This document shows, piece by piece, positions 5,458 through 30,538 of a stretch of 54,370 nucleotides of DNA. Both the position numbers and the translations under genes were made by a program. Below the pieces are notes generated by a model. It was not told where the DNA came from. It was given only the letters and a program-made list of their open reading frames with translations, and did not search any database. The stretch lies in the NCBI GenBank assembly GCA_017461065.1, contig JAFTZC010000014.1, positions 1 to 54,370 of the forward strand, written 5' to 3'. How positions within the stretch are numbered: position 1 is the stretch's first letter; each line of letters starts with the position of its first letter. This stretch comes from Clostridia bacterium (lineage in GTDB: Bacteria; Bacillota; Clostridia; Christensenellales; DTU072).

Positions 5458-5483
5458 TCTCAAACGCCAAAAATAGCATAAGT

Positions 5484-5512
5484 GCGCCGTTTTGGTCAGA
5501 CTAAAGCGGCGC
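5484..5512 (+). other. GC-rich intergenic hairpin without U-tract between tig and clpP
   Basis: GCGCCGTTTTGGT-CAG-ACTAAAGCGGCGC. Confidence 0.5.
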
Positions 5513-5564
5513 TCTATTGGGTACAATAGTTAGGGGACAAAGCAACGTTATAAGGAGAATTTTT

Positions 5565-6173
5565 ATGGTAAACGAAATCAAATCGGTAATGATGCCGATT
5601 CCAACTGTAATCGAGCAATCCAACAGGGGCTCTACTGCATACGATCTATATTCAAGACTACTTGAAGACAGAATTATTTTCCTAACGGGACAAATTGACG
5701 ATGCGACTGCAAACTTAGTAGTCGGACAGTTGTTATATCTTGAAACTAAGGACCCAACCAAGGATATATGTTTATACATCAACTCACCCGGTGGCTCGGT
5801 TACTGCAGGAATGGCGATATTCGACACTATGAACTACATCAAGTGCGACGTATCGACGATATGCGTAGGTATGGCGGCATCAATGGGCGCATTCCTACTT
5901 GCAGCAGGCACCAAGGGCAAGAGGATTGCTCTTCCCAACAGTGAAGTTATGATTCACCAACCACTCGGCGGAGCACAAGGACAAGCAAGCGACATCAAAA
6001 TCGTTGCCGACCATATCTTGAAAATCAAGGCAAAGCTCAACAAGTTCTTAGCCGAAGCAACGGGCAAGCCCATCGAAGTAATCGAGCGCGACACCGACCG
6101 TGACAACTATATGTCAGCTGAAGAAGCCAAGGCATACGGACTTGTCGACGAAGTTTTCTACACAAGGAAATAG
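5565..6173 (+). CDS. clpP: ATP-dependent Clp protease proteolytic subunit
   Basis: [28 protein letters not shown]; start moved to ATG 5565 after AAGGAG. Confidence 0.97.
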
Positions 6174-7482: not shown

Positions 7483-9762
7483 ATGAAGAACGCAAGAATG
7501 ATAATGATAGCGACCGAGGAAGTGGTTTTCCCCTACGAGTGCGGAAAGCTACGCGTTACCGAAGACGCTGATATTTTAGCAATACAAAGGGCGGTCAGCG
7601 AGGGCGAAAAGATTGTTCTCGTACCCGTCAGAGTAGGCGAGCGCCCAAAGGACGGCGACGTAGGTATCGTCACCGAAGTGGAGCAATTTATTTACGTCCC
7701 CGAAGACAACGAGGGCGCTATACTAATGTATAAGACGGGCACGCGCCGCAACTACATCCACGAGATGGAGTGCGACGGCATTGCAACCACCGTATCCCTT
7801 GCATCTTGTCCTTTTTACGACTCTGGCGACGAGTTCACTCTCCGCACTTATTTTGAGCGCGCAAGCGAGCTGTTTATGAATCTTAGCGGCATTCTAAAGG
7901 GTGTCAACGGCAGCGCGATTAGGCTTGAGTACGATAGCGTAAACACCGATATTGATGCAATCGTAATTTGGCTAAAGACGGCAGATAAGTATCTATTCTT
8001 CACTTGCTTGGATACCGAAACACGCCTAATGGAGTTTTGCAAGGCACTTGATATGGAAGTATACGCAATGGGCCTTGATATCCAAGTTGCAGAAAAAGTT
8101 CGCACGTCTATGGACCAAAGCCAACGCGAGTATTACGTACGCGAGCAAATACGCGCTCTCTCCGAAGAAATCGGGGATGAAGACGAAGAAGGTCAATATC
8201 TTCAAAAGATAGATAACCTTTTGACCACCGATGCTAACAAGGAAAAATTCCGTCGCGAAGTTCGTAGGTTGAAGCGTACTGCGCCTGCAAGTCCCGATAT
8301 GGCGCTAATCAAAAACTATCTCGACACCATTTTGGAGCTTCCTTGGGGCGTATATACCGACGACAACGAAGACCTCAAGGTGGCAAAGAAAGTTCTTGAC
8401 GAAGACCACTACGGCATCAACAAGGTTAAGGAAAGGCTTATCGAAGCGCTTGCAGTAAGAAAGCTATCCAAAGAGGGTAGGAGTCCCATCATTTGTTTGG
8501 TAGGCCCGCCCGGAATTGGCAAAACTTCTATTGCAAAGTCCATTGCAAGGGCGATGAACAAAAAATACGTTCGTTTGAGCTTTGGCGGCGTACGTGACGA
8601 AGCTGAAATTCGCGGACACCGCAAGACCTACGTAGGCGCAATGCCGGGTAGAATTATCACGTCCATACAATCGGCTGGCAGTATGAACCCCGTATTCCTA
8701 ATGGACGAAATCGACAAGATGGCGTCCGACTACAAGGGTGACCCTGCAAGTGCGTTACTTGAAGTATTGGACCCTGCACAAAACGTCAACTTCCGCGACC
8801 ACTTCTTGGAAGTACCTTTTGATTTATCCAAGGTATTGTTTATCGTTACGGCAAACACGCTCGATACCATTTCAAGACCGCTCCTTGACAGAATGGAAGT
8901 CATCGAAATGACGGGCTATACCGCTCCCGAAAAGTTGGAAATTGCTATGCGCTATATCATTCCACGCGCACTTGAGCAAAACGGCGTAGACAAAAAGTGG
9001 ATGAGCATTGATAGGGACACCGTAAGTCATATCATCGAGTATTACACCCGCGAAGCAGGTGTTAGAATGCTCGAAAAGCAAATCAACGCAGTTGTACGCA
9101 AGGTTGCACGCAAGTACGTCGAAAACCCACGCACGCGCAAAGTTAAAATAAATAAGGATAATATTAAGGATTATCTTGGCGAGCCCGTCGTGCTACCCTC
9201 AAAAGGCCCACGCAAGGACGAAGTAGGCGTAGTAACAGGTCTTGCTTGGAACGCGGTTGGCGGAGACATCACCGAAGTAGAAGTTGCCTACTCAAAGGGC
9301 AAGGGCAATTTGGTGCTTACGGGCAGTCTTGGCGACGTTATAAAGGAAAGTGCTAAGATAGCAATAAGCTATCTTAAAGTACACGCAAGCGAGTATGGTA
9401 TCGCTGACGATTTCTTTGAGAAGCACGATATCCATATCCATATGCCCGAAGGTGCCGTTCCAAAGGACGGACCAAGCGCAGGCATCACCTTTACTACGGC
9501 AATTTGCTCGGCAATTACGGGCAAAAAGGTACGTGGCAATGTTGCAATGACGGGTGAAATTAGTCTTGTCGGCAAGGTACTGCCAATCGGTGGACTAAAG
9601 GAAAAGACGCTTGCAGCCCTTCGTGAAGGGATTGTCAAGGTATTCCTACCCGAAGACAACCGCAAGGACTACAAGGAGCTACCCGAGCTTGTAAAGGAAA
9701 AGATAGAATTCAGATACGTAGAGCGCGTAGAAGACGTGCTAAAGGAAGCGATAATATGGTAA
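7483..9762 (+). CDS. lon: Lon protease (divergent N-domain)
   Basis: GPPGIGKTS, EIRGHRKTYVGAMPG and PKDGPSAG catalytic motif. Confidence 0.96.
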   Translation: MKNARMIMIATEEVVFPYECGKLRVTEDADILAIQRAVSEGEKIVLVPVRVGERPKDGDVGIVTEVEQFIYVPEDNEGAILMYKTGTRRNYIHEMECDGIATTVSLASCPFYDSGDEFTLRTYFERASELFMNLSGILKGVNGSAIRLEYDSVNTDIDAIVIWLKTADKYLFFTCLDTETRLMEFCKALDMEVYAMGLDIQVAEKVRTSMDQSQREYYVREQIRALSEEIGDEDEEGQYLQKIDNLLTTDANKEKFRREVRRLKRTAPASPDMALIKNYLDTILELPWGVYTDDNEDLKVAKKVLDEDHYGINKVKERLIEALAVRKLSKEGRSPIICLVGPPGIGKTSIAKSIARAMNKKYVRLSFGGVRDEAEIRGHRKTYVGAMPGRIITSIQSAGSMNPVFLMDEIDKMASDYKGDPASALLEVLDPAQNVNFRDHFLEVPFDLSKVLFIVTANTLDTISRPLLDRMEVIEMTGYTAPEKLEIAMRYIIPRALEQNGVDKKWMSIDRDTVSHIIEYYTREAGVRMLEKQINAVVRKVARKYVENPRTRKVKINKDNIKDYLGEPVVLPSKGPRKDEVGVVTGLAWNAVGGDITEVEVAYSKGKGNLVLTGSLGDVIKESAKIAISYLKVHASEYGIADDFFEKHDIHIHMPEGAVPKDGPSAGITFTTAICSAITGKKVRGNVAMTGEISLVGKVLPIGGLKEKTLAALREGIVKVFLPEDNRKDYKELPELVKEKIEFRYVERVEDVLKEAIIW

Positions 9763-10364
9763 TCAAAAACGCAGAATTTATCACGAGCGCAGGCACGGTC
9801 GAGCAAATCATCAAGGGTAGTACCCCCGAAATCGCGGTAGTAGGCCGCTCCAACGTAGGCAAGTCGAGTTTTATCAACTTTATGTGCAACCACGGTCGTC
9901 TTGCCAAGACGTCCAAGGAGCCGGGCAGAACTCGTCTAATCAACTACTTTGACGTCAACAAGGGCGAATTCATCTTCGTTGACCTACCTGGCTATGGTTT
10001 TGCCAAGGTAAACGATAACGAAAAGGCCAAGTGGGGCAAGATAATTGAAGCATACCTTCAAGAAAGCACGGGGCTCAAAAACGTTTTCGTGCTACTTGAC
10101 ATTAGGCGCGAGCCAAATGCCGACGACGTCCAAATGCTCAACTACCTATACCACTACAACATACCTTTCACCATCATTGCCACCAAGGGCGACAAGCTTA
10201 GCCGTAGTGCAGGCTTAAAGCGCAAAAGAGAGATAGCAAACGCCCTTAAAGTAGGTGTTGGCAACGTACTTTTGACGTCCAGCCTAAACAAGAGCGGCGC
10301 ACAAGAAGTTCTTGACCGAATTGAAAACATTTTGGAAGTAGAAGAACTTCCCATTGAAGAATAG
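9756..10364 (+). CDS. engB: Ribosome biogenesis GTPase YihA/YsxC
   Basis: GRSNVGKSS, DLPGYG, TKGDK; follows lon. Confidence 0.96.
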   Translation: MVIKNAEFITSAGTVEQIIKGSTPEIAVVGRSNVGKSSFINFMCNHGRLAKTSKEPGRTRLINYFDVNKGEFIFVDLPGYGFAKVNDNEKAKWGKIIEAYLQESTGLKNVFVLLDIRREPNADDVQMLNYLYHYNIPFTIIATKGDKLSRSAGLKRKREIANALKVGVGNVLLTSSLNKSGAQEVLDRIENILEVEELPIEE

Positions 10365-10669
10365 TGCGAAAGCGAGCTTTCGCAATGAAATACAAAAGCT
10401 AATGCTTTTTGCAATAAATACTCTCGCCTTGCGAGAGCAAGAAATACCTTCACTCCGTTCGGCGCGAAATACAAGTGCAAGCACTTGCGTTAAGGAAAGA
10501 GCATATACTAAGTACTACGATATGCTTTAACTCTCTAATACCGTAACGCAAAAAACTTGTTTTTTGTATTTATTGCCTTGGAGCGTTAGCGCAAAGGTAT
10601 TTATCGCCCGTAGGGTATTTATCGCTGAGCGCAAGCGAAGTATTTATCGCGAATGCTTTGCATTCCGCA
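10365..10669. repeat. Symmetric branched repeat/hairpin element (~305 nt)
   Basis: Four GC-N2-3-(G/T)AAATAC repeats on the left and four GTATTTAT(C/T)GC on the right, each separated by short hairpins, around a central stem. Confidence 0.85.
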
Positions 10670-10691
10670 TTTACGACAGTAAGGAGTAACT

Positions 10692-11393
10692 ATGAAAGTT
10701 TTCGCAATAAGCGACCCCCATCTTTCCTTTGACGAAACCAAGCCAATGAATATTTTTGGCTCGGTTTGGGATAACCATTGGGATGAAATTACTAAGGATT
10801 GGGATAATAGGGTATCGGATGACGATATCGTGCTTATTGCCGGTGATATTTCGTGGGCGATGAAGCTCGAAGACGCCAAGCGCGACCTTGAGCTGATTGG
10901 CAAGCAAAAGGGCATAAAGGTACTTATCCGTGGCAACCACGACTATTGGTGGAGTAGTTACAAAAAAATCCAAGAGATACTCCCCGAAAACCTATATTGC
11001 CTGCAAAACAACGCCGTTAAGTTCGGTAACGTCATTATATGTGGCACTCGCGGTTGGTCGGTGCCCGAACTCGGAGTGGAAACCGACGAGCACGATTTGC
11101 TCCTATACGAGCGTGAAAAACTCCGTTTGGAGCTTTCCCTAAAGGAAGCCAAAAAGCTATGGCAGGAAGGGGATATCATCATTGCAATGATGCACTTCCC
11201 ACCATTCAACTCAAGGTACTTGAGTTCACACTTTACCGATTTATTCAAAGAATACGGCGTACATAGCGTAGTTTACGGACATCTCCACGGCAACGCATCT
11301 CGCACCGTTCTCGTCTACGAAAAGCAAGGTATTTCTTATTATCTTACTTCTTGCGATAAGCTTAATAATAAACTCCAAATAATAGAAATATAG
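10692..11393 (+). CDS. Calcineurin-like metallophosphoesterase
   Basis: DPH, GDIS, GNHD, HFPP and GHLH motifs. Confidence 0.92.
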   Translation: MKVFAISDPHLSFDETKPMNIFGSVWDNHWDEITKDWDNRVSDDDIVLIAGDISWAMKLEDAKRDLELIGKQKGIKVLIRGNHDYWWSSYKKIQEILPENLYCLQNNAVKFGNVIICGTRGWSVPELGVETDEHDLLLYEREKLRLELSLKEAKKLWQEGDIIIAMMHFPPFNSRYLSSHFTDLFKEYGVHSVVYGHLHGNASRTVLVYEKQGISYYLTSCDKLNNKLQIIEI

Positions 11394-17905: not shown

Positions 17906-18899
17906 TTTTGAATGGATAGCGGTGGCGTTTGTTGCCACCTTCCTGCTTGGAATGTTGATAGGCCCTGCGGTAATCAAGGTAGCAACCAAGCTAAAAGCAA
18001 AGCAGACCATACTCGGCTACGTCGAGCAGCATAGCCTAAAGACGGGCACACCCACCTTTGGTGGGCTTATCTTTTTGCTACCCTTCGTAGTTGTTTCGGC
18101 CGTACTTGGCGGCTTTGAGTATTCGATTACCAGGATGGCAATCGTAGTTACGTTGGCGTATGGGCTAATCGGCTTTCTCGACGACTTTTTGAAGGTGCGC
18201 TTCAAGGAAAACAAGGGGCTAAAGGCATACCAAAAGATAATATTCCAAACGGGAGTAGCCGTCTTTATTGCCTACTTTAGCTTCAAAAACCCCTTTATAG
18301 GCGGCAGTATTGCGCTAAACTTCGGCTTGGGAGAGCTAAATCTCGGTTATTTTTATATCCCGTTCGCCGTGCTCGTCTATATTGCTATGTCTAACGCCGT
18401 CAACCTAACCGACGGCTTGGACGGCTTGGCAGGCACCACCACCGCCGTTTATATCGTAAGCTTTATGGCAATCACGCTCGTTAGCTATCTCGATGCGCTG
18501 GAGTACGGCAAAACCCAGTATTCCAAGGAGCTTCTTTCCCTTATGCTCACGAGCGCTTCGCTCGTTGGCGGTGTGGTGGCGTTTTTGTGGTTCAATTCCC
18601 ACAAGGCCAAGATATTTATGGGGGACACAGGCTCCCTTGCTCTCGGCGCTTACGCAGGGGCGCAAGCTCTCTTTATAAAAAATCCGCTCGTCAGCGTACT
18701 CGTAGGCATAATGCCGGTTATCAGTTGCATATCAGTTATAGTGCAGGTGGCGAGCTTCAAACTTAGGGGTAAGCGCGTGCTACTGATGGCGCCACTCCAC
18801 CATCATCTTGAGCTAAAAGGGCTAAACGAGAGCAAAATCGTCGCTTTTTACGGGATAATCACCCTAATTGCAGGGGTGGTATCTCTACTAATAATCTAA
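17898..18899 (+). CDS. mraY: Phospho-MurNAc-pentapeptide transferase
   Basis: GTPTFGG, NAVNLTDGLDGL, FMGDTGS, APLHHHLE. Confidence 0.97.
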   Translation: MSDFEWIAVAFVATFLLGMLIGPAVIKVATKLKAKQTILGYVEQHSLKTGTPTFGGLIFLLPFVVVSAVLGGFEYSITRMAIVVTLAYGLIGFLDDFLKVRFKENKGLKAYQKIIFQTGVAVFIAYFSFKNPFIGGSIALNFGLGELNLGYFYIPFAVLVYIAMSNAVNLTDGLDGLAGTTTAVYIVSFMAITLVSYLDALEYGKTQYSKELLSLMLTSASLVGGVVAFLWFNSHKAKIFMGDTGSLALGAYAGAQALFIKNPLVSVLVGIMPVISCISVIVQVASFKLRGKRVLLMAPLHHHLELKGLNESKIVAFYGIITLIAGVVSLLII

Positions 18900-29836: not shown

Positions 29837-30538
29837 CTAAAATTCCAAATTTTCATCTTTTATGGCCGTGCGAAGTTTTTGTAGCACGGCTTTTTCAAGG
29901 CGCGAAACGTAACTACGAGATATGCCGAGCGCGTTTGCGGTAATTTGTTGCGACTTAGGTTCGTCACCGCTAAGACCGTATCGCATATCTATTAGTATTT
30001 TTTCCCTTTCGGTTAGGTGTCTGTCAAGCAGTTTCTTTATTCCTTGTCGCGTTACGGCATCTTCCGTCTTTTTATAGACCGTGTCTTCGTCAACGGAAAG
30101 CATATCTATAATTTGGAGCTGATTGCCGTCCTTGTCCGTGCCTATTTCGTCATATAGAGATAGGTCGTTTTGGCGCTTTTTGTAGGAGCGCATAGCCATT
30201 AGGATTTCGTTTTCGATGCACCTTGAAGCGTAAGTTGCAAGGGTCGTGCTTTTATCCCCTTTGTAGGTGTTTATCGCCTTGATTAAACCAATGGTCCCAA
30301 CCGAAATTAGCTCGTCTTTGTCGGGATAATTGGTATATTTTTTGGCTATGTATACTATTAGCCTAAGGTTATGCCTTACGAGGGTATCCCTTGCAGATAG
30401 GTCGCCCGCGTGAAATTTGTCCAAATACTCCTTTTCCTTTTCGGGGGATAGGGGATGTGGAAAAGAGTTATTACTTTCAATGCCCGAAGTTAGGAGCAGT
30501 ACGCCCGAAATTACTGCAAAAAAGCCTTCTAATAAAAT
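29837..30538 (-). CDS. sigK: Pro-sigmaK, uninterrupted (no skin element)
   Basis: [39 protein letters not shown]; frame extends upstream through a hydrophobic pro-sequence and SFPHPLS to an ATT after GAGG. Confidence 0.9.
   Translation of the reverse strand: MLLEGFFAVISGVLLLTSGIESNNSFPHPLSPEKEKEYLDKFHAGDLSARDTLVRHNLRLIVYIAKKYTNYPDKDELISVGTIGLIKAINTYKGDKSTTLATYASRCIENEILMAMRSYKKRQNDLSLYDEIGTDKDGNQLQIIDMLSVDEDTVYKKTEDAVTRQGIKKLLDRHLTEREKILIDMRYGLSGDEPKSQQITANALGISRSYVSRLEKAVLQKLRTAIKDENLEF

Follow-up and report, generated by a model that had tools for sequence, protein, structure and literature searches.

A foldback of fixed words and variable hairpins between engB and a putative phosphoesterase gene of a Clostridia bacterium: an element probably linked to PF05635 genes

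We report that the spacer between engB (YsxC GTPase) and a putative phosphoesterase gene in a draft genome of a Clostridia bacterium (GenBank contig JAFTZC010000014.1; the whole stretch of 54,370 nt that was analysed is referred to as the window) carries a foldback element in which short fixed words alternate with variable hairpins. It is well supported that the feature is real, that it is not a gene for a non-coding RNA (ncRNA), and that it represents a palindromic element linked to genes for PF05635 proteins and inserted between the two genes in this lineage. We read it as an orphan copy that is similar to REPINs (inverted pairs of repetitive extragenic palindromic, REP, sequences) and MITEs (miniature inverted-repeat transposable elements) and akin to the intervening sequences (IVSs) of rRNA genes, its mode of movement being presumed. 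Specifically, the element in the window is very probably an orphan member of a PF05635-linked foldback family that was inserted here, the idea that a PF05635 protein binds it and brings about its copying is tentative, and for identity and mechanism weighed jointly we put the probability at roughly 0.6.

Each of the two inverted arms holds four words, with the consensus GCNNNAAATAC in the left arm and GTATTTATYGC in the right arm, and the left arm is the reverse complement of the right. Short perfect hairpins directly adjoin the words that they separate, and the two arms are joined by a conserved centre composed of a clamp and a stem-loop. An earlier reading of the window from its letters alone (the sequence-only reading) had described the spacer as a symmetric 305-nt tree of five stacked four-way junctions, and had offered a large structured ncRNA, a non-autonomous mobile element, or a repeat-plus-variable-hairpin array with an unknown partner protein as its identity. 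Every word, hairpin, clamp and stem that it listed was found at its position, it was right that the element starts directly after the engB stop codon, and its remark that this is not simple tandem duplication was also right. The near-symmetric foldback is thus real; its extent is a different matter, since the repeated core is shorter than 305 nt and the two outermost hairpins are particular to this locus.

The genome to which the window belongs (G000; 1.51 Mb in 81 contigs, 43.8% G+C, 79% complete) has nine full copies of the core with 90-96% identity (two each on contigs C31 and C53, one each on C36, C49, C54 and C58, and the one in the window), and approximately five partial copies are present on C2, C11 and C13. 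We refer to these as family A. The element is therefore not a single occurrence. All 20 listed copies of family A and of two families with other words (B and C) are intergenic, and they occur in either orientation relative to the neighbouring genes. Moreover, in one DNA sequencing run (X1) the unitigs from the interior of the element had a depth of 205-300, compared to 27-31 in the flanks, and the contigs break at the element; the joint of an empty site was not found in the contigs of three DNA runs, which break at the repeat.

Family A was found in three of the 41 related genomes searched, all of one genus: G000, G020 (approximately 80% identity) and, weakly, G002, of which the latter two are 60% and 95% complete, respectively. 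The engB-phosphoesterase neighbourhood was matched in 14/14 congeners drawn, and the element was absent from the spacer in all six congeners inspected (G002, G004, G005, G007, G010 and G011). There the spacer ranges between 0 and approximately 130 nt, with the TAG followed directly by the ATG in G002, and four of these element-free congeners (G004, G005, G007 and G011) share the AGGAG site. For a second copy (on C58) the corresponding spacer is 183-244 nt shorter in 5/5 relatives. No target-site duplication was seen by eye in the flanks of nine G000 and six G020 copies, the true ends of which are uncertain since the terminal hairpins vary. The G004 spacer (L016, contig C5, approximately 63411-63587; roughly 130 nt) has heptamer-like repeats of its own, GTTCCGC three times and CCGCACT two or three times, which may represent a different word element and the spacer a recurrent landing place.

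Searches of phage and plasmid collections with blastn in distant mode gave no match to the element. A scan of metagenomes for three spaced GTATTTATYGC words returned 26 loci (L143-L168, from several collections, one record being titled marine); these were rejected as relatives because they are tandem repeats in one orientation with a constant period of 12-37 nt, and have neither an inverted arm nor a PF05635 open reading frame (ORF).

The link to PF05635 comes from a gene-bearing copy. At 14692-15335 on C13 of G000 the same left arm, clamp, centre and right arm are present, the arms being 88-95% identical to those of the window element, and between the centre and the right arm there is a 117-amino-acid ORF, on the strand that matches the minus strand of the window. 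The ORF matches PF05635 (23S_rRNA_IVP; 3.8e-23) and TIGR02436 (four helix bundle protein; 7.3e-28), and by eye a promoter-like site is also present between the centre and the right arm. According to the list of ORFs none that corresponds to PF05635 is present within 10365-10691, where the centre is 54 nt, and the window element is thus an orphan copy. Since all gene-less copies in G000 share one centre junction, we infer from the sequences that the gene was probably lost once, after which the form without it increased to about ten copies in the lineage. The six aligned copies in G020 share a centre junction of their own, with an 11-nt insert and some substitutions relative to G000. With multiple copies, an insertion relative to the congeners and a gene-bearing relative with the same arms, the suggestion of a non-autonomous mobile element finds support; the array with a partner protein is supported in form, and the candidate partner is a PF05635 four-helix-bundle protein.

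The Pfam profile detected PF05635 in 12 of the 22 genomes of the genus, and tblastn identified three homologues in G000, six in G020 and three in G002. By eye, most of these 12 genes have inverted arrays of short words around or just upstream of them, with or without hairpin spacers, and the word varies by element (GTGAAGTT, CGATAAGTGA, ATATAAC, ATATCGC, TGATGATATAC and AACATCATTT); for two of the 12 the arrays are tandem heptamers without hairpins. Counting one genome per species, the protein has at least 596 relatives, of which the best 80 were taken; these 80 derive mostly from metagenome-assembled genomes of gut Clostridia, a few being labelled Bacteroides, Barnesiella or Victivallaceae, and at 69 of the loci both flanks are at least 200 nt. 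With a foldback defined as an exact 7-mer present at least three times together with its reverse complement at least three times, 33 of the 69 loci have one upstream of the gene and four have one flanking it, compared to 0/69 for the same-orientation control. The typical layout is the terminator of the preceding gene, by eye often a tRNA gene, then four word-and-hairpin units, the centre, four reverse-complement units, sometimes a promoter-like site, the ribosome-binding site and the gene. In many PF05635 loci the last word is 11-20 nt from the gene start, and the foldback at those loci is hence in the 5' untranslated region (UTR). At five loci (L078, L081, L111, L039 and L041) the foldback-plus-gene unit starts, by eye, after an apparent tRNA gene and a terminator hairpin. 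Of the solved structures, 2RLD (E = 1.2e-43) and 2GSC (Xcc0516) come closest to the protein alignment, both of them deposited with five chains, and in Xanthomonas the S23p protein is described as a toroidal homopentamer (PMC4990558).

Comparison of homologous loci shows that the words are fixed and that the spacers are free to change provided that they form hairpins. For the syntenic PF05635 cassettes at C55:1298-1642 in G000 and C32:4483-4824 in G020, with flanking genes that are 80-92% identical, the words (GTGAAGTT / AACTTCAC) are kept and every spacer is different; the number of units also differs, and a terminator-like hairpin follows the gene. Synonymous sites of this gene pair are saturated (pS = 0.75), so the words have been conserved where neutral DNA would be randomised, and with dN/dS = 0.03 for this pair and 0.16 for the C13 gene compared with its counterpart on G002:C175 (pS = 0.66) the proteins are under purifying selection. 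Likewise, the word GTGAAAT is used at 13 loci whose proteins are 67-92% identical; the words are invariant there and the spacers are all different perfect hairpins. Of the 84 arms in a set of 42 upstream foldbacks, 56 have exactly four words, and the spacers are mostly 9-19 nt with a mean folding energy of -3.26 kcal/mol, compared to -0.68 kcal/mol for shuffles. Perfect hairpins of at least 3 bp are present in 195 of 246 spacers; 112 spacers are taken up by the hairpin entirely or with no more than one base to spare at either end.

Predicted folds of the window element are more stable than those of shuffled controls on both strands (RNA, z = -5.4 on the plus and -5.7 on the minus strand with 0/100 shuffles as stable on either; DNA, z = -4.4, again with 0/100). 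The junction tree of the sequence-only reading can be drawn with 80 of its 85 pairs standard in the window sequence, and is only a model; the minimum-energy folds and the RNAalifold consensus choose long-range registers that are partly different. We aligned 15 copies, i.e. all nine full G000 copies and six from G020, where three others situated at contig ends were omitted. The tree pairs 90% of the alignment cells compared to 37-52% when slid, a margin that is expected as the structure was derived from one of the aligned sequences. Pairing is complete (100% in 15/15 copies) for the clamp and for three local hairpins, 10422-10436, 10473-10486 and 10550-10565, and the 10473-10486 hairpin has two compensated pairs (TG/CA to CA/TG in 7/15 copies). 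The three word-to-word helices are 79-90% paired, with some positions that never pair and with G020 changes that the nested register leaves uncompensated; the G020 word variants do have exact complements, but these belong to other registers. Local hairpins and clamp are therefore well supported, and the stacked four-way junctions are possible but not supported.

Several observations point to palindromes that are maintained at the DNA level and not as RNA. Selection on a structure in a single RNA strand would be expected to permit G-U pairing and to enrich stable tetraloops, neither of which was seen. Within 330 nt upstream, a set of 73 genes has 438 hairpins that are perfect (stems of 5 bp or more) and only 30 that contain one mismatch, which is G-T in 8 and A-C in 7; the loops are mostly 3 nt (TTC 48, GAA 25), TTCG occurs twice and GNRA and TYNC loops number 26 and 29, respectively. 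Over the 15 family-A copies there is no consistent strand asymmetry of fold energy (mean difference -1.2 kcal/mol). Rfam gave no match at E up to 10 on either strand of 9800-11300, rRNA likewise gave none, and no promoter-like site was found inside the element. It is the lack of a G-U excess or stable-tetraloop bias, together with the two orientations, the equal strands of family A, the empty Rfam search and the missing internal promoter, that leads us to DNA. Counts of sense and antisense wobble pairs in arm-to-arm alignments of 12 cassettes were discarded because noise affected the alignments and the tallies were mixed.

The same data bear on the alternative that the element acts as RNA, be it a free-standing ncRNA or, in the manner of an rRNA IVS, a long hairpin within the transcript of engB and the phosphoesterase gene, which RNase III would cut or cut out or which the four-helix-bundle protein would bind as a ribonucleoprotein; we consider this alternative improbable. 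Strong predicted folds, the fully kept local hairpins and clamp with two compensated pairs, and the position in the 5' UTR at many loci would all suit such a role, as would the excision of ORF-bearing rRNA IVSs by RNase III at the stem of their inverted ends (PMC4990558) and the reported place of PF05635 as the most common Pfam family in a data set of diversity-generating retroelement (DGR) neighbourhoods, with its reported resemblance to Avd (PMC10053308); family B, discussed below, also has a strand preference. Against this, stems are nearly all Watson-Crick, neither UUCG nor GNRA loops are enriched, the word-to-word helices that the junction tree needs carry uncompensated changes, orphan copies are found pointing either way with respect to adjacent genes, and the element is not conserved at this locus in congeners. 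The large structured ncRNA of the sequence-only reading is consequently the proposal that we set aside, with no Rfam family matched and, for family A, two strands that fold about equally well.

The PF05635-linked reading can be extended to a mechanism, as follows. The element would act as DNA, and its spacers would extrude as hairpins in single-stranded or cruciform DNA, so that the words of an arm would lie head to tail, as they do in rRNA IVSs and in those other PF05635 cassettes whose arms are tandem heptamers. The word array would then be the recognition site of a cognate toroidal pentameric four-helix-bundle protein, supplied in trans by a gene-bearing copy, and the nucleoprotein complex together with host replication or repair might copy the module to further intergenic positions, in many cases to where another palindrome has its centre. 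Hairpins that are perfect and yet keep changing might owe their upkeep to template switching within a strand (quasipalindrome correction), to selection for extrusion, or to the two together. More speculatively, and with no great confidence, PF05635 toroids and word-plus-hairpin foldbacks might form a class of mobile DNA without a transposase or reverse transcriptase, in which the word array could be read only once the palindromes extrude and the module would be copied by replication or repair functions of the host, with a preference for palindrome tips as targets; hairpin-spaced arms, tandem-heptamer arms and 23S intervening sequences would be one system, and the spacers products of template switching.

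Three transposase or reverse transcriptase families (RVT_1, Y1_Tnp and rve) were searched for as mobilisers, in incomplete assemblies. RVT_1 was found in 0/5 genomes searched, including G000; Y1_Tnp is present only as a 32-amino-acid remnant in G000 (C37) and not in G020 or G002, and rve is in none of these three. Both Y1_Tnp, as an intact gene, and rve are present in G001 and G003, which do not carry the element. These results matter for the possibility of an ordinary MITE, where the arms are terminal inverted repeats with several subterminal sites for a conventional transposase like those of Tn7, Mu or IS21, or for an HUH enzyme that recognises hairpins, the gene of which is unassembled or unrecognised, and where PF05635 is passenger cargo. 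We regard this as slightly less probable again than a role as RNA: inverted ends, repeated subterminal words, a multicopy and intergenic distribution that is patchy among congeners, and carrier genomes of 79%, 60% and 95% completeness, in which repeats and insertion sequence (IS) elements are often unassembled, are what a MITE would give, but no target-site duplication is visible, no family-A arm match in G000 bounds a gene of transposase size, and the only gene enclosed by an arm pair in the order of the element is the PF05635 gene, the recurrence of which beside foldbacks across the 69 loci and many species is hard to square with passive cargo.

A host-side DNA site, i.e. an operator-like or centromere-like word array or a bidirectional terminator or insulator that is duplicated by recombination and whose palindromes are kept by template switching alone, is very unlikely, for although the words are strongly conserved and mostly 4 + 4, the foldback takes a position just upstream of PF05635 genes that would suit an autoregulatory operator, and 10250-10800 has five terminator-like hits (a hairpin and then a T-rich word) compared to 0.6 expected, the U-tracts are short, the word spacings of 18-31 nt in the window element do not hold helical phase on duplex DNA, about ten near-identical orphan copies between unrelated genes are unexpected for an operator, and the site is not needed in a spacer that lacks it in all six congeners inspected.

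Several points weigh against a PF05635-linked element that moves as DNA with the help of its protein. Conserved words beside related proteins can reflect common descent or concerted evolution of the arms, and the 80 loci are the nearest relatives of one query protein and hence not independent. None of the six PF05635 genes in G020 has family-A words, though this genome (assembled to 60%) is the richest in family-A copies, and in G000 families B and C and a family with the word ATGAATT have no cognate gene in the assembled 79%. Arms usually have four words and not five, which is a poor fit to one word per subunit of a pentamer, and that arrangement was rejected. A transposase could be unassembled because all three genomes with family A are incomplete drafts. 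With respect to DNA or RNA, TTC loops are commoner than GAA loops on the gene-sense strand (48 compared to 25), a mild strand bias, and four closely related family-B copies fold 10-19 kcal/mol better on one strand; a fifth copy that was folded, a hybrid of word families, does not have this asymmetry. Finally, the empty target is not recognisable in relatives, where intergenic DNA is too diverged, and no insertion event was caught.

Other word families in G000 have the same build and a related centre (CATGAAATG with four copies, and ACGATAAGTGA with two copies, one of which is a hybrid with a right arm of the CATGAAATG type), and the centre is conserved across families A, B and C. Further families have ATGAATT, GTGAAGTT or a heptamer type of word. 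A strict 7-mer scan of the genome added 10 foldback loci, compared to 0 in the shuffled genome, and orphan foldbacks thus far outnumber the three assembled PF05635 genes. The hybrid, at 8542-8800 on C54, has ACGATAAGTGA as the word of its left arm and GCATTTCACG as that of its right arm with the shared centre between them, which suggests that the word families exchange with one another at the clamp or centre that they conserve.

One family-A copy (C36:18329-18587) is nested in an ATGAATT locus (18232-18692), and by eye other family-A copies are also within foldbacks. Flanks complementary beyond shuffles (z of -2 or lower) were found for only four of the nine copies, and a palindromic target for every copy was ruled out on these numbers. 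The nesting, together with the self-pairing flanks of the window copy, gives a hint of insertion into the centres of palindromes or of exchange at the conserved clamp. On C11, two partial family-A right arms (87-268 and 5462-5593) face each other 5.2 kb apart, with an EF-G-like and a MurI-like ORF (by eye) between them; the contig is short and the arrangement may reflect assembly of the repeat. At locus L038 (C64:1-700) a PF05635 gene is preceded by three tandem units of approximately 58 nt, each with GAATGAG-type heptamers and a hairpin, and is followed by mirrored copies; pieces of this type of unit also flank the family-A copies on C53 and C54.

The features of the locus are listed in Table 1. 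The spacer between the two genes corresponds to 10365-10691, and lon is upstream of engB. A TGCG / CGCA closure is present at the ends of the element, and the two outer hairpins are also complementary to each other (duplex of -28.9 kcal/mol, z = -4.3); a hairpin that resembles the outer right one is found at the opposite end of the G020 copies. With one mismatch or less, GTATTTATCGC occurs six times in the 54-kb window, five of these inside the element, compared to 1.6 expected. The lone word outside (30267-30277, GTGTTTATCGC; one mismatch) is distant from the element and we regard it as a chance match.

Table 1. Coordinates of the element and its neighbours in the window
Feature	Position	Strand	Comment
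engB/ysxC	9756-10364	+	TIGR03598 (GTPase_YsxC), E = 1.5e-63; its TAG stop (10362-10364) directly adjoins the element
Outer left hairpin, TGCGAAAGC / GCTTTCGCA	10365-10386		Inverted repeat (10365-10384); locus-specific, outside the repeated core
Repeated core, family-A foldback	10387-10648		90-96% identity with eight other full genomic copies (BLAST, nhmmer)
Left arm	10382-10472	+	Words GCAATGAAATAC (10382), GCAATAAATAC (10411), GCAAGAAATAC (10437) and GCGCGAAATAC (10462)
Left-arm parts between words	10394-10409, 10422-10436, 10448-10461		The first two are hairpins, the third a spacer
Hairpin AAGTGC-AA-GCACTT	10473-10486		Sole helix with compensated changes
Centre	10487-10549		Clamp, GCGTT..GG (10487-10495) pairs with CC..AACGC (10541-10549); slot of the PF05635 gene in the C13 copy
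Central stem-loop	10500-10506, 10520-10526		AGCATAT pairs with ATATGCT
Right arm	10550-10650	+	Words GTATTTATTGC (10566) and GTATTTATCGC (10597, 10615 and 10640); direct repeat family
Right-arm parts between words	10550-10565, 10577-10596, 10608-10614, 10626-10639		The first is a hairpin, the others spacers
Outer right hairpin GAATGC-TTT-GCATTC and CGCA	10651-10669		Hairpin at 10651-10665; locus-specific within G000
AGGAG ribosome-binding site	10682-10686		Of the phosphoesterase gene
Putative metallophosphoesterase gene	10692-11393	+	Weak TIGR03729 match, E = 2.4e-10, below the curated cut-off

Among known systems, REPs and REPINs with their REP-associated tyrosine transposases (RAYTs; TnpA-REP, Y1 HUH enzymes) consist of many short intergenic palindromes, paired and inverted, and few protein genes beside the same repeats, with a family-specific sequence for each gene lineage. 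The element family of the window has a similar working outline, but its partner candidate is a four-helix-bundle protein and not a Y1 transposase, and no RAYT flanked by the repeats was found in G000, G020 or G002. In a REP the hairpin is the conserved unit, with a GTAG foot; here it is the linker word that is conserved and the hairpins vary between units and between homologous loci. Identity with a REP- or BIME-like family, which the sequence-only reading had named as an outcome that would count against it, was not found, as a conserved palindrome unit of 20-40 nt is lacking. Bacterial MITEs such as Correia, RUP and Nezha are short, non-coding and multicopy with inverted ends, and the element shares these traits and resembles an internal-deletion derivative of a longer gene-bearing element. 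It differs in that no target-site duplication was seen and no cognate transposase was found, that each arm consists of four words and hairpins, and that its only gene-bearing relative encodes PF05635 and not a transposase (three families searched, 79% assembly).

CRISPR arrays have direct repeats of approximately 23-50 nt, unique non-palindromic spacers and cas genes. Constant repeats that alternate with variable spacers are a likeness, but the words are only 7-11 nt (11 in the window), the spacers are palindromes of 7-20 nt, the array is divided into two inverted arms, and no cas genes lie nearby, the neighbours being lon, engB and the phosphoesterase gene. PF05635 genes have been reported, without explanation, in or near CRISPR-cas loci or have been scored as CRISPR-associated (PMC3936711; PMC10910872).

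The rRNA IVSs are the closest parallel to the full form of the element. As in the 23S rRNA IVSs of Coxiella burnetii and Leptospira, which carry the S23p ORF, the full form has a PF05635 gene, situated between inverted ends that are able to form a long stem, and has short direct repeats next to the ORF; the extruded arm of the element would be a head-to-tail array as in the Coxiella IVS, where the heptamer GACAGAT is present three times beside the ORF, in a number that varies (PMC4990558, in part). The same source regards IVSs as selfish and their origin and movement as an open question since the early 1990s. The window copy differs in having no ORF and in its place between protein-coding genes, as opposed to helix 25 or 45 of 23S rRNA; each arm is made of words with variable perfect hairpins and not of a plain stem or tandem heptamers, and most of the Clostridia loci carry the whole foldback upstream of the gene and not around it. 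The similarity of PF05635 to the Avd protein of DGRs does not extend to the genomes, given that RVT_1 was absent from all five searched; moreover, the Avd structure 4DWL (the code given in PMC10053308) did not come up when solved structures were searched by sequence profile at E up to 1. No published description of word-plus-hairpin foldbacks beside PF05635 genes, or of orphan copies, was found in the literature searched, which did not include supplements and subscription journals.

Proteins of the PF05635 / TIGR02436 type are very common in bacteria (at least 596 relatives), and they appear in print mainly as the ORF of IVSs and as relatives of Avd. The locus and its relatives offer them a candidate nucleic-acid partner that can be tested, a foldback of about 4 + 4 words which is also present as multiplying orphans. 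For annotation, such arrays should not be labelled as ncRNA genes or as CRISPR-like arrays. The element separates two genes that nearly or fully abut in relatives, and it may affect their co-expression. If it is true that the protein reads the words, this would explain a class of intergenic repeats in gut Clostridia, would link these repeats to rRNA intervening sequences, and might reveal a way in which DNA moves without a classical transposase.

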